A stretch of DNA of 64,000 nt from an uncultured Acidobacteriota bacterium (GTDB lineage Bacteria > Acidobacteriota > Blastocatellia > RBC074), in contig CAWCKY010000004.1 of assembly GCA_963796275.1 (NCBI GenBank), forward strand, positions 32,001 through 96,000. The letters are read 5' to 3'. This document shows positions 1 to 26,381 of the stretch, in pieces. A program made the translations under genes and the position numbers. Each line of letters begins with the position of its first letter. Position 1 is the first letter of the stretch. The notes beneath the pieces were generated by a model. The model made no database searches and was not told the DNA's origin. It saw only the letters and a list, made by a program, of their open reading frames with translations.

Positions 1-1983
1 CGGCGTCTTTTGCAGCACTCGATCATCTGCTTCCAGAGGATATTCTTTTTGCATCCACTCCATGTGGTTCCAGATCGCCCCCTGCGTGATCATCACTCCC
101 TTCGGCTGCCCCGTCGATCCCGAGGTATAGATCACATACGCCAGGTTCTCCTCCGTTACTTCGATTCCCAGGTTCTCTCCATTTTCCTCCTCCAGCCGCA
201 CCCAATCCCGATCTACACAGATCACCTCTTCAACCCATTCCGGGACAGAACCCAATAACTTCTCCTGCGTTAGCACCACCCCCACTCCCGCATCCTGCAC
301 CATGTATCTCAACCGCTCGCTCGGATAGCTCGCATCTAGCGGTAAGTAGGCCCCTCCAGCTTTGAGCACGGCCAGCAGCGCCACCACCAGCTCACACGAT
401 CTCTCCATCTGAACTCCCACTAGCATCTCCGGCCCCACTCCCAATCGCCGCAGCTGTCGCGCCAGACGGTTCGCTCGCTCGTTCAGCTCTCGATAGGTCA
501 GACTCCCAGAACCATCCTCGATCGCCCTCTTTTCCCCGCTTCGCTCGACTTGCTCTTCAAACCATTCGTGCAGCACACGGAACCTTCCCCATTCGACTGC
601 CGTTCGATTCCAATTGATCAGCAATTCTTCGCGTATCCCCGATCCGACCAGTTCCAGCTCTCTCCACTCTTTTTCGGCACTGTTCACTGCGCTCCCGACC
701 ACGCTCAGATATTGTTCGGCGACTCGCTCGATCACGGCTTTCTCGTATCTCGCCCCTTCATACTGCAGCTCAGCGCGGAGCTCTTTCCCTTGCCTTTCAC
801 ACCACAGCTTGATTTTGAAATTCCCTTCTTTCATTCGTCTCCCGCATACTCTCCAGACCAAGCCACGGCTTCGTTCCTCATCTTCAGCTCTAACGTACTC
901 GAATCCGTACTCCAATCCTCTTCGCCACTCCGATTCCTCTCGAATGCTCGCCGCCACTCCTCGGAAGCAGTCTTGCCACGTCCGGTGCTCTTCCAGCCTC
1001 TCGCTCGTTTCATGCACTAGATGGCTCAGACTCGCATTGCTCGCTCCCTCAAATCTCATCGGCAGCCAGCGTTCGAATAATCCAAAAGCTCCTTCCAACT
1101 CGACGTCCGTTCTCCCATCGAACCGCACAACCACTGACTTCAGTCTTCCTCCCGTCAACTTCCACAACAGCACTTGCCAGCAAGCCAGCAGCACTGGTTC
1201 CTCACTCGTTCCCAGGATATCGGAGAGTCTCGCCACACCCGCCGCAAGTTCCTTCCCCAGATTTACTCTCACCGGACTCGATTCCCGCTCACGCTCCCAA
1301 CCTTCTACCTCAAGCGCCAGTCGACCGTTGGCTTCCGCTTCCGTCGATTGGCCTCGCCAATAGGCTCGGCCTTCGGACGCTTCCTCGCTCTCCTCCAGTT
1401 CGCGCTGCCACGCCGCATACGCCGCATATTGCACCACATCTGCTTCAGCCTCTTCCATCTCCTTACATCCTTCACGCAGCCTCTCATACCTCCAGGCCAA
1501 CTCACTCATCAGATTGACCCAGCTCTTGCGATCCACGCTCAATCTTGGCAGGCTGAGCAGCAATCTGGTCTCCTGCCTATCTTGACGCTGCAGACAGGCT
1601 TGTAAGGCTGGTTCGCTGCCGTCCACCGCTCCTTCCTCCATCGTCTCGACCACGCGATCGCCCCACGTCGTATCACCAGTCTCACACGCCTCCCGTTCTT
1701 CTCTCCATCCCAAGGCGCAGGATTCGCTCACCACCTGCCACGGCTGACTCATGCCGGCTGAGAGCCGATACCCGGTCCGCAGAATCTGATGCCTGGCCAC
1801 CGTCTCTTCCAACGCTCTTCGCAGTGCTTCGCTCTCGACCTCACCGGTCAGCACGATCTCGCACAATTCGCGCGGTGTCGGCCCAGCCAGCGCCGACAGT
1901 TCCCTCCACGCTTCCAACTGTTGCTGTGAGATCTGGTAGCCGGTTACCGCCTGCTGTTCTATCAATGTACTTTCATCTCCCAT
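1..1983 (-). CDS. NRPS, 5' part: N-terminal non-catalytic interface/C-like domain + adenylation domain, continues beyond left edge
   Basis: Manual translation from ATG 1983: MGDESTLIEQQAVTGYQISQQQLEAW...ETVARHQILRT; the HHxxxDG position reads LLSLPRLSVDRKSW; A3 motif LAYVIYTSGSTGQPKGV near the edge, in the same frame. Absent from the ORF track because there is no stop in the window. Confidence 0.9.
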   Translation of the reverse strand, partial: MGDESTLIEQQAVTGYQISQQQLEAWRELSALAGPTPRELCEIVLTGEVESEALRRALEETVARHQILRTGYRLSAGMSQPWQVVSESCALGWREEREACETGDTTWGDRVVETMEEGAVDGSEPALQACLQRQDRQETRLLLSLPRLSVDRKSWVNLMSELAWRYERLREGCKEMEEAEADVVQYAAYAAWQRELEESEEASEGRAYWRGQSTEAEANGRLALEVEGWERERESSPVRVNLGKELAAGVARLSDILGTSEEPVLLACWQVLLWKLTGGRLKSVVVRFDGRTDVELEGAFGLFERWLPMRFEGASNASLSHLVHETSERLEEHRTWQDCFRGVAASIREESEWRRGLEYGFEYVRAEDEERSRGLVWRVCGRRMKEGNFKIKLWCERQGKELRAELQYEGARYEKAVIERVAEQYLSVVGSAVNSAEKEWRELELVGSGIREELLINWNRTAVEWGRFRVLHEWFEEQVERSGEKRAIEDGSGSLTYRELNERANRLARQLRRLGVGPEMLVGVQMERSCELVVALLAVLKAGGAYLPLDASYPSERLRYMVQDAGVGVVLTQEKLLGSVPEWVEEVICVDRDWVRLEEENGENLGIEVTEENLAYVIYTSGSTGQPKGVMITQGAIWNHMEWMQKEYPLEADDRVLQKTP

Positions 1984-1984
1984 A

Positions 1985-3049
1985 TCAAATGTCCGTCCTT
2001 TCATATGGTTCGGCCATACCGAAAATGATCTTTCTCTCGCCCCTGAATGACCAGCGTCCGTGCGCGGTCAGCATATTGTCGAGAATGATGACGTCGCCGC
2101 GCTCCCACTCGAAGGCCTTGCTGTTTTCCAGATATGCAGCCCTCAACTCGTCCATGACCGGCGCTTCGATCTCGGATCCGTCCCCGTAGTAGGTATTGTT
2201 GGGCAGATCTTCTACTTTGAACTCCGCGAGCAGAGCATTACGGATCGCAGGTAAGAGCGTCGAAATATGAAAGAATGCCACGTGGTTGAACCAAACCTTT
2301 TCGCCGGTTCGTGGATGCTCAACCACGGCCGGTCGTACCTGGCGAGTGCGCAGACGGTCGCCGTCTCTCCATTCACAATCGATGCCGGCTTGGCGGCAAT
2401 ATCTTTCGACTTCGTCTTTTTCAGTGGTTTGAAAAACCGTCTGCCAGGGCAAGCCAAAGCCATTTCCGAAGTTGCGAACATACATCCATTTCTTTTCGAG
2501 AAAGCGTTCTCTGATCTCCGGAGATATACTCCGGAAAATTTTGCGCGTATCGGCAATCGGCGTCCCCCCTCCCTGCTCGGCCGGAATCAAACAACCGAAG
2601 TAAAGCTTCATCGGCAGAGTTTTGGCATAGGAGTGTTCGTTGTGGGGGAAGATATCTTGCTCCGCGGGATAATCGGTCGAGGTATAGACATTACCGATCA
2701 CGCTGCTGCGAGGAGATGAGCGTTCGCGGTACTCCATCACCTCTCCTGAAATCGCTCGGATCAATTGCTCAAACTCATCCGCCGAATTCATCTGAAAATT
2801 CCGGAGGAGAACGGCGCCACTCCGTCGGCACCAGGTTTCGATGAAGTCCCGGTGGTGCGCGGCCCAGTCAATCAGGCGGACCCCTTCGACGGCAGGCTTA
2901 ACGACCAGCGGGAGTGTGCCGTCGGCATCGAGGTATTCCGTATAAATCAGGCACTCCTCCAGCATGTTGACAGCTTTGGGCTGCGCCATTTTTCCCCGCG
3001 AAGCCCATAAGCTCTGTTTCTCCGGATCCTTCCTTTGTTCAGCACTCAT
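1985..3049 (-). CDS. TauD/TfdA-family Fe(II)/2-oxoglutarate dioxygenase, SyrP-like beta-hydroxylase
   Basis: HNEHSY (HxE) and DNMLTAHGR motifs; HPRTGEKVWFNHV; GGGAGG RBS before ATG 3049; stop abuts the next NRPS start. Confidence 0.9.
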   Translation of the reverse strand: MSAEQRKDPEKQSLWASRGKMAQPKAVNMLEECLIYTEYLDADGTLPLVVKPAVEGVRLIDWAAHHRDFIETWCRRSGAVLLRNFQMNSADEFEQLIRAISGEVMEYRERSSPRSSVIGNVYTSTDYPAEQDIFPHNEHSYAKTLPMKLYFGCLIPAEQGGGTPIADTRKIFRSISPEIRERFLEKKWMYVRNFGNGFGLPWQTVFQTTEKDEVERYCRQAGIDCEWRDGDRLRTRQVRPAVVEHPRTGEKVWFNHVAFFHISTLLPAIRNALLAEFKVEDLPNNTYYGDGSEIEAPVMDELRAAYLENSKAFEWERGDVIILDNMLTAHGRWSFRGERKIIFGMAEPYERTDI

Positions 3050-3172
3050 TGCCATCCCTCCCGTCAAAAAGAGTTCATGATCTGGCTCTCAAGTAGATAC
3101 TCTCCTCGAAATACGTCTCAGCACCACCTAGACGTCAGCCGCTCCCGTCACCCTCAAGTTGGGACGATGGGC

Positions 3173-6100
3173 TTATTTATTTTGTTTCGGGACGTCCGCA
3201 ACTCCTTTGAGCATTTTTCGGCGCGCCGCTGCAAATTTACTTCGATTCTGAAGGCGCTCCTGTCGATCATCCTCTTCGAGGGCAACAAAAAGCTCGTCGA
3301 CCATCACGGCTGAGCGCGCAGCGATTATGTGGAGCAGCGTTTTCAACCTGAGCCCGATCCGCTTAATCGTGGATGCGTCGAAAAGCTCCGTGTTGTAACG
3401 GAACTTGCCGATCATTCCGGCTTCAGCCTCTATCATATAAAGGCTCAGATCGAAGACGGACGTACTGTTATCAAATTCCGCAAGTTGCAGTTTCAAATCC
3501 CCGGCTTCCAGGAACTGCGTTTGCGCATTGCGCAAGCCGAACATCACCTGGAAGAGCGGATTACGGCCCAGATCGCGTTCGGGCCGTAACACTTCCACCA
3601 GTTTGTCAAATGGCAAATCCTGGTGGGCATAAGCGCCGAGAGTTGTCTCTTTGACTTGCCTCAACAGGTCGTCAAAATTCTGCCCCTTCCTGATCCGGAC
3701 ACGTAAGACCAGTTGGTTGACGAACAGTCCGATCAAGGCCTCGCTCTCTAGCCGATTCCGGTTTGCGACGTCCGTGCCGATGAGCAGGTCTTCCTCACTT
3801 GACCAATAACTGAGCAGCACCGCAAAAGACGCCAGCAAAGTCATAAACATTGTGGTTTCTTCCCGGCTGCTCAATGTCTTGATCGCTTCCGTCAGACTAT
3901 GGGAAATATCTAGATAGTAGGCTGCCCCCTTGAAAGACTGCACCAGCGGACGTTGCCGATCGGACGGCAATTCCAGTACGAGCGGCGCATCTGCGAGTTG
4001 CTCCTTCCAGTAAGAGAGCTGCCGGTCGAATACAATGCCGTTCATTTGCTCCCTTTCCCACGCCGCGTAATCGGCAAACTGAATTGAAAGTTCAGGGAGG
4101 GGAGAAGGTCGTTCATGCACGAAAGCTTCATAGAGAGTCGCCAGCTCGCGCACGAAGACTCCAATGGACCACCCATCGGAGATGATGTGAGGCAAGGTTA
4201 CCAGCAACATATGCCGTTCGCCCTCTAAGCGCAGCAATCTGAAACGCGCCAACGGCCCTAGTCTCAGATCAACCGGTTTTCTTGCCTCGGCGATTGCTAG
4301 TTGCTCTGCCATCGCTTCTCGTTCGCTCTCAGGCAACCCGCTCAAATCCTCGATCTGTAAAGTAATGTCCAGAGCCTCATTGATAATCTGGACCGGTCTC
4401 CCATCCTTAAAATCAATGGTCGTACGCAAGGCCTCGTGCCGCCGAATGATTTCGCCGAGACTTTGTTCCAATGGACTAAGATCGAGTTGTCCGATCAGAT
4501 GAATGACACCGGACGAGTTGTATGCCGTACTTCCAGGCGCCAGTTGATCCAAAAACCAGAGACGCTGTTGGGCAAAAGAGAGAGACAAATCCTGATTGCG
4601 GTCGATCGGCGGTATGGGCGAGGTAGCATTCCACGCCATTGCGCCAGCAACCTCAATCTCCTTGGCCAATTCGGCCACGACTGGTTTCTCGAAGAAAGTG
4701 GAGAGGGAGACTTCGATTCGGAATCTTTCGCGCAACCGCGAAACTACTTGCGCTGCTAATAGCGAATGCCCGCCCAATTGGAAGAAGTTGTCGTAGACAC
4801 CGACTCGAGACCCCCCGAGGACTTCTGTGAGAATTTCAACCAGCGCCTTCTCCACTGGAGTCCTCGGGGCGACATAATGATCGTCCGATTCAGAGAATGT
4901 TCGCGTCGCAAGAGGCAGCGCGCGCCGGTCTACTTTCCCACTTGGCGTCATCGGCAATTCGTCAAGTCTGACGAAGGTCGAAGGGATCATGTAATCCGGC
5001 AACCTCTGTTTCAGCGCATCCCGCAATTCATCTATAAGTTCTCCTCCCCAAGCCGATTGTCGCGGCACAACATAAGCAACCAGACGCTTATCGCCGCCGG
5101 ATTCCTCGCGAGCAGCAACCACTGCTGCTTTGATTGCCGGGGAGCTGCACAACGCGGTCTCAATCTCGGCAAGTTCGATACGGAACCCCCTGATCTTGAC
5201 TTGATGATCCATGCGCCCGAGAAATTCGATCTGCTCATCCTCTTGAAAACGGGCAATATCACCGGTCCGATAGAAACGCGCACCCGGCTCTAGGCTGAAG
5301 GGATCCGGCACAAACTTCTCCGCTGTCTGCTCGGTATCGTTAAGATATCCCCGCGCTAGCAGCGGCCCCCCAATGCACAGCTCTCCCCGAGTCCCAAGCG
5401 GCTTCAAATTTCCTTGCCGATCTAAAATATAGATGGCCCGCCCGGCAAGTGGGCGTCCTATCGGGACGCGAGTCACGGAGTCCTGTTCGCCATAATGTGG
5501 AGGTACGTCGAAGAGTGTGGAGGTGATCGTCGTCTCCGTCGGCCCATACGCATTTAATAATCTCGACGACCCCATTGCGCTCTGTAGCCACTGTCGCACA
5601 GTGGCTATGGGCATGGCATCTCCGCCAACAATGATCAGCCTGAGCTGCGTTTCCAATCCGTGCGTCTCAGTAAATTCCCGTGTGAGTACAGTCCAATAAG
5701 CCGGTGGCACATTGGCCACAGTGATACCATATCGTTCCACCTGATGATAAAAATCTGTCGTCTCCCACCGCTGCTCGTCGCGCAGCACCAGCGTCGCCCC
5801 GCTGAAGAGCGTTGCCAGTATCTGCTCGATTGAGACATCGAAACTCAGAGAAGCGAACTGGAGCATGCGATCATTCGACTGTAGTGCAAATGACTCTCCG
5901 ATCCGAGCCAGATGGTTGACCGCTGCTTCGTGAGAGATGCATACGCCTTTAGGGCTGCCGGTCGAACCCGATGTGTAAATAACGTATGCCAGATTCATCC
6001 CGGTAATACACGATTCAAGATTAACCGTGGATTCCTGCGCAATCCCTCCCCAATCTGAATCGAGACAAATGATTTCGGAGGCGACAGCAGAGGCTGGGAG

Positions 6101-7813
6101 ATTGAAGATAAGATGCTGTTCGATTAAGAGCACGGATGGGCCAGTGTCTGTAAGCATATAAGACAATCGCTCTTGCGGAGACTTCGGATCGAGCGGCACA
6201 TATACGCCGCCTGCTTTCAGTATTCCAAGTAGTGAGACCACTGTTGCGATAGAACGATTGGCGCAAACACCGACTGTGACTTCGGGTCCGACCCCCAACC
6301 CACGTAAACGATGTGCGAGTTGATTGGCTCGCTCGTTCAAATCACAATAGCTGATCACTTCATCTCCCAACACTATGGCTATCCTCTCAGGAGCGCGATC
6401 GACTTGGGCTTCGAACATCTCAGACAAGGTACATCTCAAAGGCACGGCGGAGCTGATGGCATCACCGACAGCCAGCAATTGACGTTGCTCCTCCTCGGTC
6501 AACAGCGACAGATTGGAAAGGCGCTGTTCAGATCCAGTAATGACGGTCTCGATCAGGGTCTTCAAATATCCGAGCGTCCGGCCCATAGCTTCCCGCTGAA
6601 AAGTAGAGCCGTCATGAGCAAGGCGTAAGACAAATTGGGGTGACTCCGAAACTTCGAGGACGGTGGGGTAGTCATTTTTTATGTCTACGTGATGGCGGCG
6701 AATTGTTATATCTCTGACAAACCATGGCAAAGGTAGAGTGTGCTCATAGTCATTGAAAGCCAGCGCGCTCTCGAACAAACTTTGATCAGGTTCAACATCG
6801 CTCCAGTCTCGGATTTTTGCCAGCGGGATATGCTCAAATCGGTTGGTCTCAATATATTGATCTTGCAGCCGGTTGAGCCATGAAATCACGGTGGCGCCGG
6901 CTGTGATCTCGACTCGAACCGGTACGAAGTTGCTGAACGCACCAACGGCAAGTTCTCCTCCAGGCCACGAAGATGGACGGTCCGACAAGCATATTCCGAA
7001 GACAATCTCCGTTGAATCAATGTAACGACCGAGGAGTAATGCCCATATACCTGAGAGTATAGTCCTTATGCTCAATTGATGGCGTTGCGCGAAAGCTCTG
7101 AGCGCGGCGCAGGTATTTGTAGAAAGCTCAATCTCTTCTTCTTGGTCTCGGCTGTGGTTGCCTGGTAACGGATGTATGCTCAGCGAGTCCGGTGCACGGA
7201 GCGCTGGCAGCGCATCCGTCCAAAACTCTTTAGCATCAGTTAGTTCTTGCCGTTTCAGCCAGGCAAAATAATCTTTGTATATATAAGTGTGCTTCGATTT
7301 GAATTCCCGCGCATCACATATCGCGTCATAGCATGCAAATAGATCCATCAAGATGATCTGTTGCGACCTTCGATCCAGTAACAATCCGTGATAACTCCAG
7401 ACAAAGTAATGTGTCTTTACAGTCATACGAATGAGATGAACGCGGAGCGGCGGCGATCTTCTCAGATCGAACCTGACCTCGCGCTCCGCTGTCAAAAACT
7501 GCTCCATCCGATGTTCCTGTTCACTTGCAGGCAACGTGCTCCAATCGTACCATTCCAGTGGTATCACCACTTCTCGCAGCACGACTTGTAGCGGTTCATT
7601 TAAATTCTCCCAGGAAAACAGGACGCGCAAAGCCTGATGCTGCCGTAGTATTCGCTGCCAGATCTGCTCGAAAGCGGTAACGTTCAAATCACCATCCAGG
7701 AGATAACTGCAGAGCCGCACGGGTAACGAACCAGGAGATTTCAGTTCGCGGCGCAGAATCTCCTGTTGAATAGGCGTAAGCCTATAGATATCTTCGATAT
7801 TCTCTACTTTCAT
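3173..7813 (-). CDS. NRPS: degenerate C - A - T - C
   Basis: N-terminal DCL-like domain with WSYHGLLLDRRS; A motifs YTSGSTGSPKG, NAYGPTE, YRTGD, SGKVDR; T motif FFQLGGHSL; C-terminal C domain PHIISDGWS. Confidence 0.95.
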   Translation of the reverse strand: MKVENIEDIYRLTPIQQEILRRELKSPGSLPVRLCSYLLDGDLNVTAFEQIWQRILRQHQALRVLFSWENLNEPLQVVLREVVIPLEWYDWSTLPASEQEHRMEQFLTAEREVRFDLRRSPPLRVHLIRMTVKTHYFVWSYHGLLLDRRSQQIILMDLFACYDAICDAREFKSKHTYIYKDYFAWLKRQELTDAKEFWTDALPALRAPDSLSIHPLPGNHSRDQEEEIELSTNTCAALRAFAQRHQLSIRTILSGIWALLLGRYIDSTEIVFGICLSDRPSSWPGGELAVGAFSNFVPVRVEITAGATVISWLNRLQDQYIETNRFEHIPLAKIRDWSDVEPDQSLFESALAFNDYEHTLPLPWFVRDITIRRHHVDIKNDYPTVLEVSESPQFVLRLAHDGSTFQREAMGRTLGYLKTLIETVITGSEQRLSNLSLLTEEEQRQLLAVGDAISSAVPLRCTLSEMFEAQVDRAPERIAIVLGDEVISYCDLNERANQLAHRLRGLGVGPEVTVGVCANRSIATVVSLLGILKAGGVYVPLDPKSPQERLSYMLTDTGPSVLLIEQHLIFNLPASAVASEIICLDSDWGGIAQESTVNLESCITGMNLAYVIYTSGSTGSPKGVCISHEAAVNHLARIGESFALQSNDRMLQFASLSFDVSIEQILATLFSGATLVLRDEQRWETTDFYHQVERYGITVANVPPAYWTVLTREFTETHGLETQLRLIIVGGDAMPIATVRQWLQSAMGSSRLLNAYGPTETTITSTLFDVPPHYGEQDSVTRVPIGRPLAGRAIYILDRQGNLKPLGTRGELCIGGPLLARGYLNDTEQTAEKFVPDPFSLEPGARFYRTGDIARFQEDEQIEFLGRMDHQVKIRGFRIELAEIETALCSSPAIKAAVVAAREESGGDKRLVAYVVPRQSAWGGELIDELRDALKQRLPDYMIPSTFVRLDELPMTPSGKVDRRALPLATRTFSESDDHYVAPRTPVEKALVEILTEVLGGSRVGVYDNFFQLGGHSLLAAQVVSRLRERFRIEVSLSTFFEKPVVAELAKEIEVAGAMAWNATSPIPPIDRNQDLSLSFAQQRLWFLDQLAPGSTAYNSSGVIHLIGQLDLSPLEQSLGEIIRRHEALRTTIDFKDGRPVQIINEALDITLQIEDLSGLPESEREAMAEQLAIAEARKPVDLRLGPLARFRLLRLEGERHMLLVTLPHIISDGWSIGVFVRELATLYEAFVHERPSPLPELSIQFADYAAWEREQMNGIVFDRQLSYWKEQLADAPLVLELPSDRQRPLVQSFKGAAYYLDISHSLTEAIKTLSSREETTMFMTLLASFAVLLSYWSSEEDLLIGTDVANRNRLESEALIGLFVNQLVLRVRIRKGQNFDDLLRQVKETTLGAYAHQDLPFDKLVEVLRPERDLGRNPLFQVMFGLRNAQTQFLEAGDLKLQLAEFDNSTSVFDLSLYMIEAEAGMIGKFRYNTELFDASTIKRIGLRLKTLLHIIAARSAVMVDELFVALEEDDRQERLQNRSKFAAARRKMLKGVADVPKQNK

Positions 7814-7875
7814 CTATTATGTTCCTTACCAAGCTATTCAAAGGTGTTTGCTGGAATGGTCGAGGATATACGAAC

Positions 7876-9492
7876 CTATCTTCCGGAAGCATCGGCTTCG
7901 AGGTAAGTGTCGAATCGCCCAAATAGGCGTTGAGCATCTAGGAATCCTGCTTCACGAGCCTTTTGAATCAGTTTATTGGCCTCTTTAATTTGAATAGATT
8001 CTTCTGACAACCCTAATCCCATGCCGTACTGGAACCACGGCTCACTTCCCATGGCATATATATATACCCGCTTTCCGCCGACCGCCTCGAGCAGCGCCCA
8101 TGCAGCTTTTGCGTTGCTGCCTTTCGTCCGTCTACTAATGTCATGATCGTGTTGAATCCTGGATGGGAGTAATGCCCCATAAAGCCATGAAAGCGGCGCG
8201 CCCACACATTCCATCCCCAAAAAAACAGTTTCAATATCGCCGATCGATCGACGAAGATGTTCGTATAGTCGCCGGTCGAGACAATTAGAGTCAGCCGCGA
8301 ATAAAATGCTCTCCTTTCCAATGCGAATGGCATATGCGCTCTTGCCGTGAGGGAGATCGGCATGCTCTCCTAAAAACGGGACGGCGATGATTTCACCATT
8401 TGGCAGCTCAATCGACTCCAGAGAATCCAACTCGATCACATTTTTAAATCCTATCTGATAGGCCAGCAGTTTCAGCGAAGGATCCGTGTAGAACAGGCTG
8501 AAGTTCTTTGGTACAACCAGGCAGTCGATGCGATGCCGCAAGCGAAGCAGCGTTTCAGGAACAAAGTGATCATGATGGGCGTGTGTAATGAGCGCGAAGT
8601 CAATCTTCTTTGGCAACTCTCGATAGGTGATACGCTCTAATCCGCCGTCTCGAGGCATAACCCCAACCCAGGGATCGGTCATGATAGAGATTCCATTCCA
8701 TTCGACCAAGACACAGGCATGTCCCAGATACCTGATGCGGAGCTTCGGTTCTCGCCACGGTTCAAGTGGCATATTGTGCTCTGACGATAAAAACGGCAGA
8801 AGCGCCTCTTCCTGCCGCTGACCGAGCTCCAGCACTTCGCGAATATGACCCAGAGGTCGCGGCGAGAGCTCAATCCTGAAGAGTTCATCTATCTCCGGGC
8901 TTTCGAATGATACTCGCCAGTCGATTTCATCTTCGTTGAGTAAATGCGGCGTGCTCAGGAAAAAGGGCCGCGAATTATCTCGCTGAACCATAAAAAAACG
9001 CAGTGACTGGAGTATTCTGTTATAGTAAGGGCTTGCGTAAAGCAACCCTTCCATCAGACGTAGAATCGGGTGATTGTAGTAATCGTAGACTAACTCTGTG
9101 TAACCGCGAAGACACTCAGATAATCTCTCATAAAAAGGCTCGAGGCTTTGCCCCTTCGCTTCGTGCGCCAGGCACTCATAAGCTTCGGTGATAGCCTTTG
9201 CCAATTCGAGGTTAGAATACTGGCGTTGCATTGAGCCGAGTAATGCCCGAACCTCATCTGCGCGCTCCAATGGCGCGTCAACAAAAGGTCCACCAACTAG
9301 CCTCGGGTTTTGGCAGGCCTTGATGTGGATCTCTGGATTTTCCATGTAAGACGAGAGAGTCTTGATCTGATAATGCCTCAGATGCATGCTGTAGGGAGCC
9401 GGGGCAATCAAATCCGACCACACGGCCCATTGATTAATTAACGGCTCGACCACAGTTGAATCCGCAAGACGATATGTTGTTTGGGATGACAC
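7876..9492 (-). CDS. MBL-fold non-heme diiron monooxygenase (CmlA/FrsH-type beta-hydroxylase), copy 2
   Basis: About 540 aa; THAHHDH, FLGEHADL, AADS, LGMECVGAP; N-terminal EPLINQWAVW; likely GTG start at 9492 after GAGGAGGAG. Confidence 0.88.
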   Translation of the reverse strand: MSSQTTYRLADSTVVEPLINQWAVWSDLIAPAPYSMHLRHYQIKTLSSYMENPEIHIKACQNPRLVGGPFVDAPLERADEVRALLGSMQRQYSNLELAKAITEAYECLAHEAKGQSLEPFYERLSECLRGYTELVYDYYNHPILRLMEGLLYASPYYNRILQSLRFFMVQRDNSRPFFLSTPHLLNEDEIDWRVSFESPEIDELFRIELSPRPLGHIREVLELGQRQEEALLPFLSSEHNMPLEPWREPKLRIRYLGHACVLVEWNGISIMTDPWVGVMPRDGGLERITYRELPKKIDFALITHAHHDHFVPETLLRLRHRIDCLVVPKNFSLFYTDPSLKLLAYQIGFKNVIELDSLESIELPNGEIIAVPFLGEHADLPHGKSAYAIRIGKESILFAADSNCLDRRLYEHLRRSIGDIETVFLGMECVGAPLSWLYGALLPSRIQHDHDISRRTKGSNAKAAWALLEAVGGKRVYIYAMGSEPWFQYGMGLGLSEESIQIKEANKLIQKAREAGFLDAQRLFGRFDTYLEADASGR

Positions 9493-9623
9493 TTCTCCTC
9501 CTCTACCGCATTTCTTTGCTGTTAACAACTAGATGTATTAACGCCTCGATAATGGTTTCTCTAATAGGCTTCGCAATAGGCTCTTGCGCAGAGAGAAGGC
9601 GGACCAAGAGATGGGGTTGGCGA

Positions 9624-11216
9624 TCAATGCGCATAAAGAATTTCCTTCTGCCCGAAGAGTCTCTCAGCTTTAATCCCCTTGCTGGCACAGCTTTTCAACA
9701 ACATGTTCGAGGAAACTATTTGCTTAGATTGCTCCGTGTATTTGAGGCTCATTATGTATGTCAACCATGGTTCCTGCCCCATAGCATAGACATATACCTC
9801 CTCACAGCCTAGTTGATTTACTATTCCCATAGCCTGGTCGTAGTCTGAGCCGGATAGCTTTCTGGAGTGGTCCATCTTCCTGTCTACGGGCCTGGTTATC
9901 AGCGGTCCATACAACCATGTTAAAGGCGCGCCATCGCATTCCATGCCTAGGAAGAGCACATCGACTCTTCCCATCAGTGAAAATATGTGCGCGTACAGTT
10001 TGGGCTCGATATTTGCTGAATCCGCGGCAAACATAAATGATTTGCCATTGAGATTGATCAGGTGTGCGATCTTACTGTTGATGCTCAAATCTGCATGCTC
10101 GCCTAAAAAGGGTATACCGGTTATCGTTCCTCCAGTAATATCAATAACCTCCAGCGGTTCGATCTCCCTAACATCCTTGAATCCGACATTTTGAAAGACC
10201 AGCTTGAGGGAGGGGTCCTGGAGAGAGCCACCTCCACTTCTGGGCAATATGACCGTCTTAACCTTATGCTTCAACTGCAACAATGATTCCAACATAATGT
10301 GGTCTTGATGCCCGTGCGTGATTAGTACGTAGTCTACAACCTCCGGCAGGTCGCGGAACGTAAAGCGTGGGATACCATTGTCGTAGGCGTAGCTGAGCAA
10401 TGGATCGATAAGTATGAAGACGTTCTTAGTCTCTACAGAGATACAAGCATGGCCGTAATACCGCAGTCTGACGCCATCGTTAGTGTAGCGCGAGCGTTCC
10501 GGCGGAGCTTCTTCGGTTAAGAACGTTTGAAACAGAGTCATATCTTCTGGTTGTAGTTTCAGTAGCTCGTTAATGTAGCCGATCGGTTGGGGATAGCTTC
10601 TCATCTTAAATAATTCATCAATAGCACGGTGAGCGAAAGGTATTTGCAATAGCAATGACCCGGGATTCGGCAGTCTTGGCGTGCTCAGCGCGAAGCCGCG
10701 GTAATCATCGTTGATAAGCGATAAGGATAGACTCTGCGACGAGGGATTATAATACTTACTCTTGTAGAGCAGCCCTTCTATGAATTTGATGGACGGGTTG
10801 TCATTCAGGTCGTATACCAACTCGACGTATCCCTTCAGGCATTCGGGGACCTGCAGATACAAAGGTTCAATGCAATAGCCATTCGCCTGAGACCTCAAAA
10901 GGGAGTCAACGGCCCGGGTCGAATCGGCAAAATCGATCATGTGGCTATGTTCTTTGAGCGTCTTATTCAGCAGGGCTTCTATCTCATTGACTCGTTCGCC
11001 TTGGTAGTCAATGAACGGGCCGCCAAGCAATGCCGGGCTCTTGACCGCTTTGGCATGAACTTGAGGTGCGGAAATGTAGGACTTCATTATTTTGATATGC
11101 TGATTGGCGATATTCATCGCCGCCGCCGCGGGGGCGATTAAATGGGACCATGCATACCACTGGTTGAATAATGGTTCCATCAGAACATTTTGCTTTAGGT
11201 AATGCCTTGTTGCCAT
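9624..11216 (-). CDS. MBL-fold non-heme diiron monooxygenase (CmlA/FrsH-type beta-hydroxylase), copy 1
   Basis: 530 aa; THGHQDH, FLGEHADL, AADS, LGMECDGAP, YAMGQEPW; paralog of the adjacent gene. Confidence 0.9.
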   Translation of the reverse strand: MATRHYLKQNVLMEPLFNQWYAWSHLIAPAAAAMNIANQHIKIMKSYISAPQVHAKAVKSPALLGGPFIDYQGERVNEIEALLNKTLKEHSHMIDFADSTRAVDSLLRSQANGYCIEPLYLQVPECLKGYVELVYDLNDNPSIKFIEGLLYKSKYYNPSSQSLSLSLINDDYRGFALSTPRLPNPGSLLLQIPFAHRAIDELFKMRSYPQPIGYINELLKLQPEDMTLFQTFLTEEAPPERSRYTNDGVRLRYYGHACISVETKNVFILIDPLLSYAYDNGIPRFTFRDLPEVVDYVLITHGHQDHIMLESLLQLKHKVKTVILPRSGGGSLQDPSLKLVFQNVGFKDVREIEPLEVIDITGGTITGIPFLGEHADLSINSKIAHLINLNGKSFMFAADSANIEPKLYAHIFSLMGRVDVLFLGMECDGAPLTWLYGPLITRPVDRKMDHSRKLSGSDYDQAMGIVNQLGCEEVYVYAMGQEPWLTYIMSLKYTEQSKQIVSSNMLLKSCASKGIKAERLFGQKEILYAH

Positions 11217-11412: not shown

Positions 11413-14400
11413 TCACTGTCGCCCAAGACCGGACAAATTACTGATGAGATTTTCAAAATCCCTTTGGCTTAATTCCGCCTCGGGGAAATCGCTAACGGCG
11501 AGGCCTCCGCTTTCAGTTCCAGTCAAGAGTTGGAGGGCTGATAAAAGTTGATCAGGATTGTTGACTATGCTCTCCAACAATCGCTGGTATTTCCCGGTCA
11601 TCCCAGCAATCGTCTCTCGCTCAAAGAGATTGACGTTATACTTGAACGAACAACTCAATCCTTCTTCGATCTCTTCCATGGTCAGGATTAGTTCGAATTC
11701 TGCCGTTTCGTTGTCTATCGGAAGCAAGCTGACCTCAAGTTCTCCAAGCTTCAATGATGGTATCGGCGCGTTTTGTAACACGCACAAAATCTGGATAAAC
11801 GGCGTCTGAGTCAATCCCCGCTCGGGATGCAAAGCTTCGACAACCTTTCCAAATGGGACATGCTGATGAGCAATTGCGTCAATCGTGATCTCCCTAACAC
11901 GTCCAAGCAATTCACGGAAGCTCGGGTCGCCTGATAAATCAATACGCAACGGTAACAAATTGACGAAAAAGCCGATCAGGCCTTCTGTCTCAGAAAGATT
12001 GCGGTTTGCGACGTCGGTGCCGACGATAAGGTCTTCTTGTCCGGTATAACGATAGAGGAGTGTTTGGAATGCCGCGAGCAACGTCATAAACAATGTCGCC
12101 CCTTCTCGCTGACTCAAATCCTTGAGACCCTCAGTTATAGCAATCGGCAATACAAACCGTTCGCACGCTCCCTGGATGCCCATTTTGCCGTGATGCGCTC
12201 GGTCGAACGGAAGTTTCGTTACCAAAGGAGCCCCGGCCAACTGGCGCTGCCAGTAAGCAAGTTGCGATTCCAACACCTCCCCCTGGAGCCAATCGCGCTG
12301 CCAGACGGAATAGTCGCCATACTGGATCGCCAATTCCGGCAATGGCGAAGGCATCTTAGATGAGAAGGCTTCATATAACGTCGCCAATTCATGGACCAAC
12401 ACGCCCATCGACCACCCGTCGCAAGCAATATGGTGAATCGTTATAACCAACACATGCTCTTCTTCATCGAGCCGTAATAACCGCGCCCTCATCAGTGGAC
12501 CATTGGATAAATCGAAAGGTTGTCTGACCTCTATCGTCGTTTGTTGTAAAGCAACCGACATGCGGTTGGTTTCCAGTTCTATATTCAGGTTGATTATATG
12601 TAGGTTCACCGGCGTTGCTTTCCCGACCACCTGAACCGGTCGTCCGGCCAATGATGTATATGTGGTTCGCAAAGATTCGTGACGCCTCACGATCTCATTG
12701 AGCGTCAGCTGCAACGCATCCATGTTCAGCCTTCCCCTAATGAGAAGTGCTCCAGGCAGGTTATAGGCGATATTGCCCGGCTCCAGTTGTTCAATGAACC
12801 AGAGGCGTTCCTGAGCGAATGAAAGCGGCAGATCTGGACCACGCTCCGCCGGCTTTATCGGAGGAACCTGCGTTTGCCTCGTGCTCTTTACTCGATCAAT
12901 ACACTCTGACAGGCTGGCGATGGTCGGATGCTCAAACAGTTGGCGGAACATCAGGTCTATCCCAAGAATGTCGCGCAGATGCGAGATCAGCCTCGAGGCG
13001 AGTAACGAATCCCCGCCGAGGGAAAAAAAGTTATCATGCCTACCGATACTCTCCACACCCAGTACTTTAGTCCATAACACTGTCAGCGATCTCTCGGAAG
13101 GGCTGATCGCCAGGCCACGGTTAGTGATCCGGGATCGAGTCCGCTCACCTCTGCTTATGCTACTTGACAATATTTCCAAGAGATCTACTTTTCGAATAAC
13201 ATCCAGACTACCATTCAGAAACCTCTCCATTGTTGCGCGCCGTTGTATCTTCCCGCTGGATGTCTTGCTAATCGAGCCCGGTTTAATCAGGACAACCTGG
13301 TGCACTTGTATCTCGTGCTCTTCCGCGATTGCCTCATATATTCTCCACACAATCTCATCATCATCCAGATTCCGGATTGCAGATCGCTCCAGCTCCTGTA
13401 CGATTACTAGTTGCTCCTCTCCATCCACTTCAATTGTGAACGCAGTTCCGCATCCCGCTCTGAGCGCCGGATCACTTCGTTCCGCCGTCAACTCAATATC
13501 CTGCGGATGATGATTTCGCCCTCGAATGATGATCAAATCCTTCAAACGGCCAATAATGTAAAGGTTCTCCTCCAAGGTGAATCCCAGATCACCCGTTCGA
13601 AGGAATCGCGTCTTGTCCCATCCAGTCAGTCGTGCGTTGAACGTTCGTTCTGTCTCCTCAGGGCGATCCCAATATCCATGGGCAACGCTCGGACCTGACA
13701 GCCAGATTTCGCCGACTTGTCCCTCCTGGCATTCGATTAAAGATTGGGGGTCTGCAATGACGAGTCTCTGTCCGCCATAGACCTTTCCGCAACTAACTAG
13801 GGTCCTGGTTCCTATGTCGTTTTGTGAGGCGAGAACAACTCGATTGTCTTCAAGGGCTGACTTCTGAACCTGACAAATGACGGGGCCGGAACTCGGTCGT
13901 GATGCGGTCACCGCCAGCGTTGCTTCGGCAAGTCCATACCCTGAAAACAATCCCTCGCGACGGAATCCGCACTCTTCGAAAGCTTTTGCAAACCGCTCTA
14001 ACGTATCATAACGAATTGGTTCGGAACCGTTGAAGGCCACTTTCCAACTACTCAGGTCCAGCTTCGCTCGTTCTTTCCGAGTGATCCTGTGAACACAAAG
14101 ATCATAAGCGAAATTCGGGCCGCCGCTAATCGTGGCCTGGTAGCGATTGATGGCCTGCAGCCAACGGACGGGGCGCTGGAGAAAGGCCGCCGGTGACATA
14201 AAGACGCAAGAAGCACCGCTATAAACCGCCTGCAGCGCGTTACCAATGAGTCCCATATCGTGATAAAGCGGCAGCCAACAGACGATCACACTCTGCTCCG
14301 AGACTTCATATGCCTCTTGTAACACTCCCTCATTGTGAAGCAGGTTTCCGTGACTCACCATGACACCCTTTGGCACAGAGGTCGACCCGGATGTGTACTG

Positions 14401-14940
14401 AAGGAAAGCCAGATCACCGCTCGTAAGTTGTGGGCGCGTCCACCGCTCGGTCCATTTAGATCGAGGATCATTAATGATGGTATCTGTGGCCAGCCATAGG
14501 GGTGGCTTCAAGCCCGGAGAGCGTTCGAAGTGTCGCTCGAAACCCGACAAGACTTGAGCTGTGGTCAATGTAGCCATTGCCTCAGTATCTGTGATAATTG
14601 CTTGCAGTCGCGTCAAGTTTCGATTGTGCCGAGGTGGGTACGCCGGAACGGCCACTGCTCCCGCATACAAACAACCGAAGAATGTACTCAGATAATCCAA
14701 TCCTGGAGGATAGAATAGAAGGATGCGCTGTCCGGAAGCTCCCATAGACTGTAGCCAGGCGCCAAGCGCCCGCGCTTGTTGATCCAGTTCCCGGTAAGTC
14801 AGGCACCCGTTTTCTTCTTCTCCTTCAATCAGGAACCTATAGGCAATTCTCTCCGGTTGATGCTCCGCCCTGCGCTGCAGAAGCTCCACCAGTGTCGCCG
14901 CGTTGAATGGCGAGCAATTAACGTCGGTCGAATATTTCAT
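11413..14940 (-). CDS. Lipo-initiation NRPS: fatty acyl-AMP ligase - carrier protein - condensation domain
   Basis: FAAL motifs LAFLQYTSGSTSVPKG, WLPLYHDMGLIG, GYGLAEATL, KTSSGKIQR; carrier FFSLGGDSL; C domain HHIACDGWS. Confidence 0.95.
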   Translation of the reverse strand: MKYSTDVNCSPFNAATLVELLQRRAEHQPERIAYRFLIEGEEENGCLTYRELDQQARALGAWLQSMGASGQRILLFYPPGLDYLSTFFGCLYAGAVAVPAYPPRHNRNLTRLQAIITDTEAMATLTTAQVLSGFERHFERSPGLKPPLWLATDTIINDPRSKWTERWTRPQLTSGDLAFLQYTSGSTSVPKGVMVSHGNLLHNEGVLQEAYEVSEQSVIVCWLPLYHDMGLIGNALQAVYSGASCVFMSPAAFLQRPVRWLQAINRYQATISGGPNFAYDLCVHRITRKERAKLDLSSWKVAFNGSEPIRYDTLERFAKAFEECGFRREGLFSGYGLAEATLAVTASRPSSGPVICQVQKSALEDNRVVLASQNDIGTRTLVSCGKVYGGQRLVIADPQSLIECQEGQVGEIWLSGPSVAHGYWDRPEETERTFNARLTGWDKTRFLRTGDLGFTLEENLYIIGRLKDLIIIRGRNHHPQDIELTAERSDPALRAGCGTAFTIEVDGEEQLVIVQELERSAIRNLDDDEIVWRIYEAIAEEHEIQVHQVVLIKPGSISKTSSGKIQRRATMERFLNGSLDVIRKVDLLEILSSSISRGERTRSRITNRGLAISPSERSLTVLWTKVLGVESIGRHDNFFSLGGDSLLASRLISHLRDILGIDLMFRQLFEHPTIASLSECIDRVKSTRQTQVPPIKPAERGPDLPLSFAQERLWFIEQLEPGNIAYNLPGALLIRGRLNMDALQLTLNEIVRRHESLRTTYTSLAGRPVQVVGKATPVNLHIINLNIELETNRMSVALQQTTIEVRQPFDLSNGPLMRARLLRLDEEEHVLVITIHHIACDGWSMGVLVHELATLYEAFSSKMPSPLPELAIQYGDYSVWQRDWLQGEVLESQLAYWQRQLAGAPLVTKLPFDRAHHGKMGIQGACERFVLPIAITEGLKDLSQREGATLFMTLLAAFQTLLYRYTGQEDLIVGTDVANRNLSETEGLIGFFVNLLPLRIDLSGDPSFRELLGRVREITIDAIAHQHVPFGKVVEALHPERGLTQTPFIQILCVLQNAPIPSLKLGELEVSLLPIDNETAEFELILTMEEIEEGLSCSFKYNVNLFERETIAGMTGKYQRLLESIVNNPDQLLSALQLLTGTESGGLAVSDFPEAELSQRDFENLISNLSGLGRQ

Positions 14941-14950
14941 TCTGCTAGTT

Positions 14951-15739
14951 TTAGACCTGCGCTTCCCGTAGGTTGATGAGGTTTAAGGTTAAACTCATGC
15001 ACGTCAGTCCGGCCTCAGCTTTCTCAAATTCTGAAATGTCGAGTATAGCTACTTGGAAGCCACGTTGTTCCACCAACGCGCGCGTTTGCGGATAACCGGA
15101 GGGAAGCAGCACGATTTTTCCTACAGACAGGGTATTAGCCGCCCATGGCTCCGTGGCAGGCACCTCTATGATCTCTGCCCATTCAAACGGACGAGCATCA
15201 ATCCACGAGCGGTTAAGAAGCACTGTGTTACGGCCCAGGTATGAACACCCTGTTGATAAATGTAAGCACCCATTTACTCTGACAGATCGTACATCGTAAC
15301 CATAGGGCGCCAAGATCATTCGCAACTGTGCAATCCCTTCTGTATTAGTACGACTTGATTCGCCGAGATAGAGGGTGCGGCCGATCCGTATCACATCGCC
15401 GCCTTCCAATGTCGCTGGCGGCTCGAGATATTTCAGAGGGCGGTGCCTCGCCAATACAGGAACTAAGCTATTGATTTCATCTCGCCTCCGCGAAGCCCCC
15501 ATTCGGGCAATGACAGCAAGTTCATCGACCACAACTGCGGTGTCTTCAATGAAAACGGCGTCTGGCAATGCTGGCTCTGGTGGGAGAGAAATTACCTTAA
15601 CTCCATTCTGTTTCAAGAACAGTTCATACGATTGATGTTGTCGAATGGCCTTGGAAATGTCTATCTGGACGCGGTTCAAATAGGTCAATTCACAGTTCCC
15701 GATACTGTGACTGACTTGGCGCGTAAACGCGGTCGGCAT
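14951..15739 (-). CDS. Dimethylargininase (DDAH)/amidinotransferase-superfamily guanidino-modifying enzyme
   Basis: 262 aa; PDAVFIEDTAV, LEGGD, LHLST and C-terminal GLTCMS with the catalytic Cys. Confidence 0.88.
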   Translation of the reverse strand: MPTAFTRQVSHSIGNCELTYLNRVQIDISKAIRQHQSYELFLKQNGVKVISLPPEPALPDAVFIEDTAVVVDELAVIARMGASRRRDEINSLVPVLARHRPLKYLEPPATLEGGDVIRIGRTLYLGESSRTNTEGIAQLRMILAPYGYDVRSVRVNGCLHLSTGCSYLGRNTVLLNRSWIDARPFEWAEIIEVPATEPWAANTLSVGKIVLLPSGYPQTRALVEQRGFQVAILDISEFEKAEAGLTCMSLTLNLINLREAQV

Positions 15740-15847: not shown

Positions 15848-17560
15848 TCAGGCTGGGGACAAAATCGGCGGGTTACTATACGTTGCAGATATTTTCTTTT
15901 CTGCTTTCTCTTCCTCTGTAATGAGACGATCTGAGATCAATTGGCCATCCTCAAGCTTAATGAGACGATCAGCTATGTAATAGTAGCGATCATCGTGGCT
16001 GACCACCAACACGGTTTTACCTTTGGATTTCAGCTCTGGCAAAAGTTGTAGATAAAAGACATCCTTGAACTGAGGATCCTGATCTGCAGCCCATTCGTCG
16101 AATATATATATAGGCCGGTCTTCGAGATATGCAGTCAGTAGTGCCAGGCGTTTGCGTTGGCCCTGCGACAACTCAGTGGTCGAAAGCAATCCATTTTTTA
16201 TCTGAACCTTATGGTCAAGTTGAAGCTGGGCTATATATTCGCGAGCCTGTGCATCGAGTCCCGGACGATCAAGCCCATATAGGCCATCAAACAGATAGAA
16301 GTCAGAAAACACGGCAGAGAAATGCTGGCGATAATAATCCCGATTCTGATTGCTTACCGGCTGCCCATCGAAGATTATCTCTCCACTTTCAGGCGCATAA
16401 AGAGCGGAAATCAGTTTAATGAGTGTTGTTTTACCGCTCCCATTACCTCCAGTAATAAAGACTATTTCTCCAGGATTCAATTTCAAATCTATCGGTCCGA
16501 GAGTAAAGTTGCTGTTTTCGCGTTCGCGATGATAAGTGTGAGTGACATTGATAAGGTCTACTTTCTTCCAGGGAAGAGTCGAATTTGCAAGTGGAGGCGC
16601 ATCATTCTCACTTATCTTGGCTGTGAGCAAATTCTCCAATTCACCGAGCTGATCTATTGCGATCTCGGCTTGACTGATTACTGGGTACGTATTAAGCACA
16701 AATTGAAGAGGGTGAATCATATAAAGAATGACGATAACGTATCCAGTGAGCACCTCAGTGGTTGCTCCTTGAAAGTTTGGGAGATTGAAAATTAGCAACC
16801 CAATCACTACAAAAACCAACAACTCTCCCCAATTTTCAGCAATAGCATAATTAGTCGTTGCGGCGATTCGGTCACGGGCAACGGCGGCAGCGGTAGCCTG
16901 TACATTCTGAGAGAAAAATGTTTCCCGGCGCTGGCGATGAAGTTTGAGCTCCTTGCTACCATCGACCAGGGCGTGAAAATGTTTGAGCAATAAAGTCCAA
17001 GAATCACGAGCGAGCATGTAATATTTATCGGCTCTTTGTGCAAGCACAGAGTAACCAAGGCCGCCCAGGGTAAAGATTCCAACTACTGTGAGGAGTAAAA
17101 TCCACGAGAGCCAACCCATATAAACCAGACAACCCAGTACAATCGCTGTGTTTATGCAAAGATTTGGCAGATTAAACAAGGCAGCCACAATTTTCGGAAT
17201 GTCATCGGTCAACGAGGCCATCAACCGGCTGGAGCCAATAGCCTCAAGGTCCCGTAAAGGAGAGGCGAGAATCCCGCGACTTAATTGTATTCGTAAACTG
17301 TACGCTGTCCCTTTGGCGAAGCGCCTGAGAGTAATCTGAAACACTGCCTTGCTGACAGCGAATAATGCACAGGCGGCGAAGAAACTCCACACTGGGGTTG
17401 CGCCAGGGGAGTTGCTTTGTTTCAATGCGCGGCTGGCCAAAGCCAACACAATCGTGTTACTTATCCCGCCCACAATGCCTACCAACATCATAATAACGAT
17501 GAAGCTTTTCGATCGGCTGGTGCTTGTGGAGTGTCGGAGAAAGAATGAAAATAGCTTCAT
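15848..17560 (-). CDS. Cyclic peptide export ABC transporter (SyrD/PvdE/YojI family)
   Basis: N-terminal TM helices; GGNGSGKT, LSQGQRKRLAL, FDEWAADQDP family signature. Confidence 0.95.
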   Translation of the reverse strand: MKLFSFFLRHSTSTSRSKSFIVIMMLVGIVGGISNTIVLALASRALKQSNSPGATPVWSFFAACALFAVSKAVFQITLRRFAKGTAYSLRIQLSRGILASPLRDLEAIGSSRLMASLTDDIPKIVAALFNLPNLCINTAIVLGCLVYMGWLSWILLLTVVGIFTLGGLGYSVLAQRADKYYMLARDSWTLLLKHFHALVDGSKELKLHRQRRETFFSQNVQATAAAVARDRIAATTNYAIAENWGELLVFVVIGLLIFNLPNFQGATTEVLTGYVIVILYMIHPLQFVLNTYPVISQAEIAIDQLGELENLLTAKISENDAPPLANSTLPWKKVDLINVTHTYHRERENSNFTLGPIDLKLNPGEIVFITGGNGSGKTTLIKLISALYAPESGEIIFDGQPVSNQNRDYYRQHFSAVFSDFYLFDGLYGLDRPGLDAQAREYIAQLQLDHKVQIKNGLLSTTELSQGQRKRLALLTAYLEDRPIYIFDEWAADQDPQFKDVFYLQLLPELKSKGKTVLVVSHDDRYYYIADRLIKLEDGQLISDRLITEEEKAEKKISATYSNPPILSPA

Positions 17561-23606: not shown

Positions 23607-23750
23607 CTTTTCCTCCAAAAACAAAACTGGTCTCTGACTGTGAAATTCCGTAAGCCCTGTGGGCCCTGGCACGATCGAGCCTGTCGATTGGCACATAGCG
23701 CATGACGGGCTGCGCTGAAAAACCGGGCTCGTCTGAATTCGATTTCCAAT

Positions 23751-26338: not shown

Positions 26339-26381
26339 TATGCTGGCGCGCGTGGCCAGATCGCCACGCCGTCCTCAGTCC

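Follow-up and report, generated by a model that had tools for sequence, protein, structure and literature searches.

A condensation-derived domain without the catalytic histidine behind two CmlA-type hydroxylase genes of an acidobacterial peptide synthetase line: a putative interface domain

The window analysed here, a stretch of 64,000 nucleotides from an uncultured bacterium of the acidobacterial class Blastocatellia (G000:C4:32001-96000, contig CAWCKY010000004.1), carries part of a nonribosomal peptide synthetase (NRPS) line, in which two genes for CmlA-type diiron beta-hydroxylases, CmlA1 and CmlA2, precede an NRPS beginning with a condensation (C)-like domain, hereafter called pseudo-C. 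All genes concerned are on the minus strand and are transcribed in the order DDAH-fold enzyme (dimethylarginine dimethylaminohydrolase fold), loading protein, CmlA1, CmlA2, NRPS 2, TauD-family oxygenase and NRPS 3, while further genes of the line were read to the left of the window in the same genome. The loading protein (11413..14940, 1175 aa) is composed of a fatty acyl-AMP ligase (FAAL), a thiolation (T) and a C domain (Pfam AMP-binding, DIP2-like AMP domain, PP-binding and Condensation), located by Pfam and motif read-out at about 13195-14880, 12898-13086 and 11506-12843, respectively, the last with an intact HHIACDG. CmlA1 (9624..11216, 530 aa; PF18456 at 6e-94 plus a metallo-beta-lactamase match) and CmlA2 (7876..9528, 550 aa from a TTG start and 538 aa in its database form; PF18456 at 4.4e-78) follow. 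NRPS 2 (3173..7813, 1546 aa) has the Pfam build C-like, adenylation (A), T and C. Its residues 1-448 (6470..7813) form the pseudo-C, assigned by Pfam Condensation, an AlphaFold2 (AF2) model and a tree, and the remainder (3173..6469) holds, by Pfam and motif, the A (about 4919-6448), T (about 4658-4846) and C-terminal C (about 3248-4603) domains.

In both hydroxylases, a CmlA_N domain (PF18456) is followed by a metallo-beta-lactamase fold (Lactamase_B_2/3 in Pfam). Both match the diiron monooxygenase 8a90 over their full length (7e-140 for CmlA1 and 2.6e-106 for CmlA2) and also CmlA (4jo0/5kik; 1.3e-117 for CmlA1). The motifs HGHQDH/HAHHDH, LGEHADL, AADS and GMEC are found in the pair and align with the same motifs of CmlA and 8a90, with H304, H306, D308, H309, E376, D401 and E428 (CmlA2 numbering) invariant across 62 aligned sequences. 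The first-pass annotation had stated that both paralogs keep the CmlA-type ligand set, and this is borne out by the HxHxDH, GEH, AD and MEC motifs, of which we take HxHxDH, the E of GEH, the D of AD and the E of ME to be the diiron ligands. For the GEH glutamate, the hypeptin paper backs such a role through the HynC E375D/CmlA analogy (PMC8252469). By domain build and ligand set, CmlA1 and CmlA2 belong to the CmlA-type non-heme diiron beta-hydroxylases, with a predicted activity.

The two proteins are 40% identical and are located in different lineages of the CmlA tree, which indicates that they are not products of a recent duplication; with the identity this low and the clades separate, a recent tandem duplication is ruled out. 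CmlA2 groups with P0124 and then with L196, L189, L199, L184 and L076, and the closest named relatives of CmlA1 belong to metagenome-assembled genomes labelled Pyrinomonadaceae. No other tandem CmlA pair was found in 73 CmlA loci of the class. The best 80 loci of other genomes include a single one with two CmlA genes, L062, where they lie on opposite strands at a distance of about 5 kb. The proposal that CmlA1 and CmlA2 act as a heterodimer finds no support in these lineages and loci, and a dedicated heterodimer is rejected as a general feature. It is plausible that the twin arrangement arose when recombination joined a cassette of the form C / CmlA1-type / pseudo-C to one of the form CmlA2-type / A(Arg-like)-T.

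Alternatively, the hydroxylases might not both serve module 1: the target of one could be the T-bound fatty acyl chain on the loading protein, or else a different module, with the pseudo-C irrelevant to at least one. We consider this unlikely, in view of the characterised family members, which hydroxylate aminoacyl-S-T, and of the other modules of the line, which offer no obvious second target (presumably Gln-like and Asn, each with its own TauD enzyme, and Ala and Gly, from their A-domain codes). On the contrary side, an NRPS gene that begins with FAAL directly follows a CmlA1-like gene in L148 and L181 and is close to one in L144 and L183, and the window CmlA1 directly follows the FAAL protein. 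Furthermore, contig C2 of G717 has one CmlA1-like and one CmlA2-like gene 18 kb apart, each near its own module, and HynC serves two modules (PMC8252469). Residue 1 or the acyl chain may be hydroxylated twice.

The N-terminus of NRPS 2 reads MKVENIEDIYRLTPIQQ, with EPLQVV at residues 73-78. Pfam Condensation spans residues 7-447 (4e-65), the remaining C-domain core motifs are recognisable, and the best PDB sequence matches are McyB, PvdL, TycB and SrfA-C. Residues 139-150, WSYHGLLLDRRS, pair with NHHHIILDGWS of the McyB DCL domain (8hlk): of the two His of HHxxxDG the first remains, Gly stands in for the second, catalytic one and Arg for the Gly (YHGLLLDR), and HGLLLDR takes the place of the motif at residues 142-148 (7370..7390). 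The earlier reading that the NRPS after the hydroxylases opens with a DCL-like domain minus its catalytic His is thus confirmed, EPLQVV and YHGLLLDR being read as such and the McyB alignment giving Gly. The AF2 model shows a complete C fold (pLDDT 88.9, pTM 0.86), which superimposes on the DCL domain of TycB with a TMq of 0.90. The feature is real and a chance motif is excluded. In the two other C domains of these proteins the second His is kept, with HHIACDG in the loading protein (residues 700-1145) and PHIISDG at the C-terminus of NRPS 2. The annotation had also placed the active C domain on the upstream FAAL protein: a C domain with HHIACDG is indeed there, and its activity is predicted from the intact motif.

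A search with residues 1-450 of the pseudo-C returned 120 proteins, in nearly all of which the best-aligned domain keeps HH. The only close relative among them is P0007, which has the same C-like-A-T-C build and reads YHGLLMDE; P0077 reads YSSLLIDD. In a tree of 391 C domains, a data set biased towards relatives of the query, the pseudo-C is located within a clade of 64 leaves (support 0.873), of which 61 have the second His. Thirteen of the 19 internal members of this clade follow a domain with an epimerization (E)-type motif, which is an indication that it represents a DCL clade. Interface-like domains with the xLPxLCAD motif form a separate clade of 10 (support 1.0) without the pseudo-C, and its membership in the interface (I)-domain clade is thereby excluded. 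The view of the domain as DCL-derived and independently evolved therefore holds. As a DCL subtype it is nevertheless incomplete: the fold and the clade agree, but the catalytic second His is missing and the domain follows FAAL-T-C and not an E domain.

Extending the tree by loci found in a metagenome scan and in same-class genomes gave a pseudo-C clade of nine leaves from eight proteins (support 0.936, and 0.993 in the smaller tree). All eight proteins lack the second His and carry the domain N-terminal to an A domain. The respective positions read YHG in the window and P0007, YSS in P0077 (the same as L084), CDP and YHR in L091, YHR in L147, YSP in L152 and HPG in L159; the second His is thus replaced by G, S, P, R or D, and in most cases the DG is also gone. 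A ninth case, L165:9512-15244 (YHRLLLDE), has lost all but the N-lobe (model positions 3-173), with an A domain directly behind it, and is too short for the tree. The modules behind the members of the clade show at least four different A-domain codes, indicating that the dead domain outlived changes of substrate. When 1.84 billion representatives were searched with a profile of the clade alignment, the best 150 matches were giant NRPSs that score by their summed C domains. A separate profile search, for longer proteins, yielded no new clade member. In genome scans, the clade profile does not separate the pseudo-C clade from intact DCL domains, and phylum-wide genome samples contained no ortholog of more than 38% identity.

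These replacements bear on the question of whether the pseudo-C still catalyses condensation through other residues, or carries out some other C-family chemistry. Its fold is complete, its other core motifs are recognisable, and some C-family enzymes tolerate the loss of the second His. However, since differing residues occur at this position in 8/8 clade members, the DG is mostly lost and the upstream protein supplies a C domain, competent by its motif, for the same step, we hold a catalytic role to be very improbable.

A CmlA-type gene is located directly upstream of the pseudo-C NRPS in five of the seven contexts with readable upstream DNA, namely, the window, the first open reading frame (ORF) of L091, L147, L152 and L165. 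In the case of L159, the CmlA gene is 7 kb upstream, beyond a HEAT protein, an M28 peptidase and a MacB-type permease. The pseudo-C of the second ORF of L091 follows an NRPS ending in a C domain, in a cluster that contains CmlA. The contig recorded for P0124, a protein 76% identical to CmlA2, agrees with that of P0007 in length (24884) and sources, and the co-location of the two proteins is deduced solely from this agreement. As a control, the 29 best clade-profile matches in 400 genomes of the class were used. All 29 are intact DCL domains keeping HH, of which 16 follow an E-type domain and 4 more a partial C-family domain, and there was no CmlA match within 1.5 kb upstream of any of the 29. 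The figure of 5/7 is partly ascertained through CmlA loci, by way of which four of the contexts were reached.

The association extends to other C-derived pieces of the class. In a class sample of 401 genomes, 37 contain CmlA_N, which occurs there at 73 places outside G000; in a phylum sample of the same size, only 4 genomes contain it. In the wider count, which covers 73 CmlA loci of 36 class genomes and defines an NRPS as adjacent when it starts at most 300 bp downstream of the CmlA gene, 28 adjacent NRPS genes were found. An intact C is the first domain in 6 of them and an A or FAAL domain in 3; 13 open with a half-C domain of the C-lobe only, and 3 each with a pseudo-C and an interface-like domain. 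A non-catalytic C-derived start is thus present in 19/28 adjacent genes (drawn from 16 genomes and 14 genera), in comparison with 5/36 among the remaining NRPS genes of these loci, not counting any gene that comes behind CmlA or TauD; the respective Fisher p = 1.7e-5 is overstated, because relatives are not independent. In addition, the protein upstream of CmlA2-like genes ends in a complete C domain in 11 cases out of 16. Together with the non-catalytic starts, this amounts to a recurrent architecture C / CmlA / X-A-T, in which X is the non-catalytic piece.

Among themselves the half-C domains are 33-45% identical (70% in one pair), in comparison with 24-34% when set against full C domains; LCL C-lobes match them best. 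They occupy the first approximately 260 residues of NRPSs downstream of CmlA2-like genes (L188, L191, L192, L194, L195, L197, L198, L200, L202 and L203), start at a YW..KL motif and are N-terminal to A domains, six of them before Tyr-like codes (DASTIAAVCK). The half kept in L165 is the opposite one. There are also covalent fusions: CmlA2-like proteins are joined to a C-lobe in P0234, P0238, P0239 and L193:1177-3264, to a full intact C domain in L195:276-3416 and to a dead LCL-like C domain (SHRLACDS) in L200:2274-5237. The C-lobe fusions finish in a conserved acidic tail, D-x-F-x-F. In the AF2 model of the L195 fusion (1047 aa, pTM 0.56), residues 538-590 form a disordered linker, and a fixed interface is not readable from the model. 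The module behind the fusion of L200 (L200:5281-9096) has the code DSALIAEVWK, which we take to be His-like and which, if so, would make it a candidate route to beta-hydroxy-His.

Apart from these fusions, stand-alone DCL-like proteins of about 470 aa are encoded in L086:10001-11419 and L092:9986-11395, and also in L087 and L089. In L086 and L092 the catalytic His is changed to Phe (RHFIVMDG and YHFIIIDG, respectively). Downstream of the DCL-like gene, all four loci have a gene for an EctB-like class III aminotransferase and then one of the build half-C-A-T-C-TauD; a cupin/JmjC-like ORF also precedes the latter in L087 and L089.

The closest known parallel is found in the interface domains. 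The I domains of siderophore NRPSs reportedly partner stand-alone beta-hydroxylases of the 2-oxoglutarate (2OG)-dependent TauD type, as is said of the work of Reitz et al. in 2019. Similarly to them, the pseudo-C derives from a C domain, is non-catalytic, has lost HHxxxDG and precedes the A domain of the module predicted to be hydroxylated, with a hydroxylase gene directly upstream. It differs in its DCL origin, in a clade other than that of the xLPxLCAD domains, in the upstream partner genes, which are diiron CmlA-type and not 2OG, and in the small number of members found (eight). The TauD gene of the window is downstream of the pseudo-C NRPS and precedes the next NRPS; it is not the directly upstream partner of the pseudo-C. 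The xLPxLCAD clade is equated with the published I domains solely by its position behind TauD. Interface domains are described for siderophore beta-hydroxylases in the antiSMASH 8 paper, which cites Reitz 2019.

The same genome provides the interface-like domains for comparison, two of them behind TauD genes in the cluster of the pseudo-C itself. A second NRPS region, G000:C6:126000-230000, includes at least six xLPxLCAD interface-like domains together with C-TauD fusions and stand-alone TauD genes. These domains are N-terminal to A domains and always come after a protein ending in a C domain, and in most cases the junction holds a TauD gene or a C-TauD fusion. The pseudo-C has the position of the interface-like domains behind TauD, but it stands behind CmlA genes instead.

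A second parallel is the X domain of glycopeptide synthetases (4tx2, 4tx3), which is located between the last T and the thioesterase (TE) domain and binds cytochromes P450. The X domain is titled in the PDB as being in complex with OxyB. Like the pseudo-C, it has a non-catalytic C fold, and the AF2 model of the pseudo-C matches the teicoplanin X domain at rank 37 with a TMq of 0.79. The X domain recruits trans-acting P450 Oxy enzymes, and the pseudo-C, known here from genes and a model, is likened to it as a putative platform. The two share 19% identity, and unlike the X domain the pseudo-C is N-terminal to an A domain. With respect to the canonical DCL domains (McyB C1 8hlk, TycB C1 9bfd and SrfA-C 2vsq), the pseudo-C has them as its best sequence and fold matches and shares their N-terminal motifs, but it lacks the catalytic His and the DG and follows a C and not an E domain.

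In the systems CmlA/CmlP, FrsH/FrsA and HynC/HynAB, the hydroxylases are of the same family and have the same ligand set as CmlA1 and CmlA2; their substrates are T-bound amino acids, and the systems are described without a dedicated docking domain. In FR900359 biosynthesis, FrsH beta-hydroxylates Leu-S-T before the C domain performs N-acylation, and its authors state that the protein-protein interaction is still being studied (PMC7794379). A paper of 2026 still treats enzymes of the CmlA type as rare stand-alone tailoring proteins, "less common in secondary metabolism", and its accessible text does not mention a docking domain (PMC13676389). No literature linking a C-derived domain to diiron hydroxylases was found, within a coverage that excludes most subscription journals and supplements.

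Taking these results together, the best explanation, to which we give even credence, is that the pseudo-C is a non-catalytic interface domain for one or both CmlA-type hydroxylases. Docking of diiron hydroxylases by the domain is plausible, judging from its sequence and gene context. Module 1 of the lipopentapeptide line would be split over two proteins. The FAAL-T part would activate and carry the fatty acid, the only C domain competent for the first amide bond would be the one at the C-terminus of the loading protein, and A1-T1 would lie on the next NRPS behind the pseudo-C. The latter would keep the C-A platform of the module and, at the same time, offer a landing surface that gathers the hydroxylase(s) and the upstream C domain around T1. 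Because the pseudo-C cannot condense in cis, the hydroxylase(s) would gain time for the oxidation of the T1-bound residue before its N-acylation. We infer the physical binding, the action of both hydroxylases on module 1 and, by analogy with FrsH/FrsA, this order of steps. The A-domain code of module 1, read by hand at what we take to be the specificity positions, is DVENIGAITK. We take this code to be cationic and Arg-like, which fits the neighbouring DDAH-fold gene, and the substrate is probably a cationic, Arg-like residue.

Several observations weigh against this interpretation. The pseudo-C is 45.5% identical to that of P0007, whereas the A, T and C domains of the same protein reach 62-64%; it diverges faster than they do, as under relaxed constraint, which shows that it is less constrained, yet it is kept at full length. 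The CmlA genes preceding the pseudo-C in L147, L152, L165 and L091 form one CmlA1-like subclade, and the window CmlA1 is placed outside it. The nearest relatives of CmlA2 precede intact LCL or DCL modules (L184, L189 and L076) or an interface-like domain (L196), and the modules of L184 and L189 even carry DVENIGAITK, the same code as module 1 of the window; the CmlA2 lineage therefore does not need a dead C domain. Furthermore, no hydroxylase gene adjoins the pseudo-C of L159 or the second one of L091, and L147, L152, L159 and L165 were reached via CmlA-anchored loci, so that the association is partly one of ascertainment. In the best 80 CmlA loci outside the class, the 13 adjacent downstream NRPS genes begin with an intact C in nine cases, a half-C in one and an A domain in three. 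CmlP, to our knowledge, lacks a C domain. For HynC, an A-T construct devoid of any C domain is sufficient for the hydroxylation of Leu, although the solubility of the enzyme required co-expression with an NRPS module (PMC8252469). Finally, the fourth NRPS gene of the line has an in-frame TAA just after the N-lobe of a C domain (...LLHH*PVPDQ..., G000:C4:24449-24454, about 7.5 kb to the left of the window start), and the pathway may thus be broken in this strain. The TAA leaves an apparent "N-lobe / C-lobe-A-T" split, which could be a nonsense mutation, a sequencing error or a true split C domain.

In a rival explanation, the pseudo-C is a structural relic. According to this view, recombination placed a C-ending loading protein before an NRPS starting with a working DCL domain, and the latter, now redundant, lost its His and was kept only for the C-A platform and for docking the upstream protein. 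The hydroxylases would bind to A-T without ever contacting the relic, and nothing but co-regulation would lie behind the gene order. The faster divergence, the activity of HynC on A-T and the CmlA2 relatives beside intact C domains with the same code all agree with it. Intact DCL-type N-terminal domains usually follow E domains (16/29), and L076, with E / TauD / CmlA2-like / intact DCL-A-T, is its presumed ancestral state. C / X-A junctions are also known without a hydroxylase gene in between, for instance in the second ORF of L091, in L194 and at C6 160029 and 194217 of the same genome. On the other hand, the His-less state is common to the whole clade over its different A-domain codes, so the domain was kept long after catalysis was lost; non-catalytic C pieces are enriched directly behind CmlA; and CmlA is covalently fused to C-derived pieces, one of them dead. 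L165 also retains only the N-lobe, and in solved C-A structures the contacts to the A domain are made by another part. On balance, we regard a relic as credible but somewhat less probable than an interface domain.

The remaining genes of the cluster complete the picture of the line. Behind NRPS 2, the stand-alone TauD-family 2OG oxygenase (1985..3067, 360 aa; PF02668 at 1.3e-45) precedes the start of NRPS 3 (1..2004), which extends beyond the window and has an interface-like C domain at about 610-1944 (SLPRLSVDR; Pfam Condensation 5e-36, xLPxLCAD clade), then an A domain. Beyond the stand-alone TauD, the line continues with I-like(SLPRLSVDR)-A-T-C-TauD (G000:C4 28380-34004), I-like(IPTLCAD)-A-T-C, A-T and C-A-T-TE. 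On the other side of the loading gene, the DDAH/arginine-deiminase-fold enzyme (14951..15739, 262 aa; Pfam ADI and DDAH, with NCBIfam dimethylargininase models at 4e-59, under their cut-offs) likely belongs to the cluster, and an ABC transporter (15848..17560, 570 aa; ABC_tran and ABC_membrane in Pfam) is its likely exporter; both are on the minus strand. Directly upstream, also on the minus strand, are a membrane M28 peptidase of 784 aa (18063-20417) and a NusG-family protein (20597-21169). The 782-aa M28 peptidase located between the CmlA gene and the pseudo-C NRPS of L159 is homologous to the one in the window. A minus-strand regulatory block (21651-29963) encodes, in addition to a sigma-54 activator bearing FHA and GAF domains, a Ser/Thr kinase, a DUF4384 protein and a 1193-aa TPR-CHAT protein.

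In a broader sense, the DCL-derived pseudo-C clade, the LCL-derived half-C family and the dead or half C domains fused to CmlA might form an undescribed general recruitment system, as a third class beside the X domains for P450 and the I domains for 2OG enzymes. It would include a ternary complex of trans-acting C domain, hydroxylase and X-A-T that gates hydroxylation ahead of condensation, and in the window hydroxylases of two lineages would doubly oxidise an Arg-like residue 1. We advance this only tentatively and think it doubtful in this general form. What is new is a DCL-derived, His-less clade, one of several non-catalytic C pieces at the C / hydroxylase / X-A-T junctions of this acidobacterial class, and we would class it as a new variant on the theme of interface and X domains. 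How CmlA-type hydroxylases find their NRPS module is an unsettled question in the field. If the interface reading is true, a partner domain recognisable by sequence would give genome miners a rule for predicting a beta-hydroxylated residue and engineers a portable handle for installing beta-hydroxy residues, and it would account for many of the C domains that annotation tools flag as "inactive" or "truncated".

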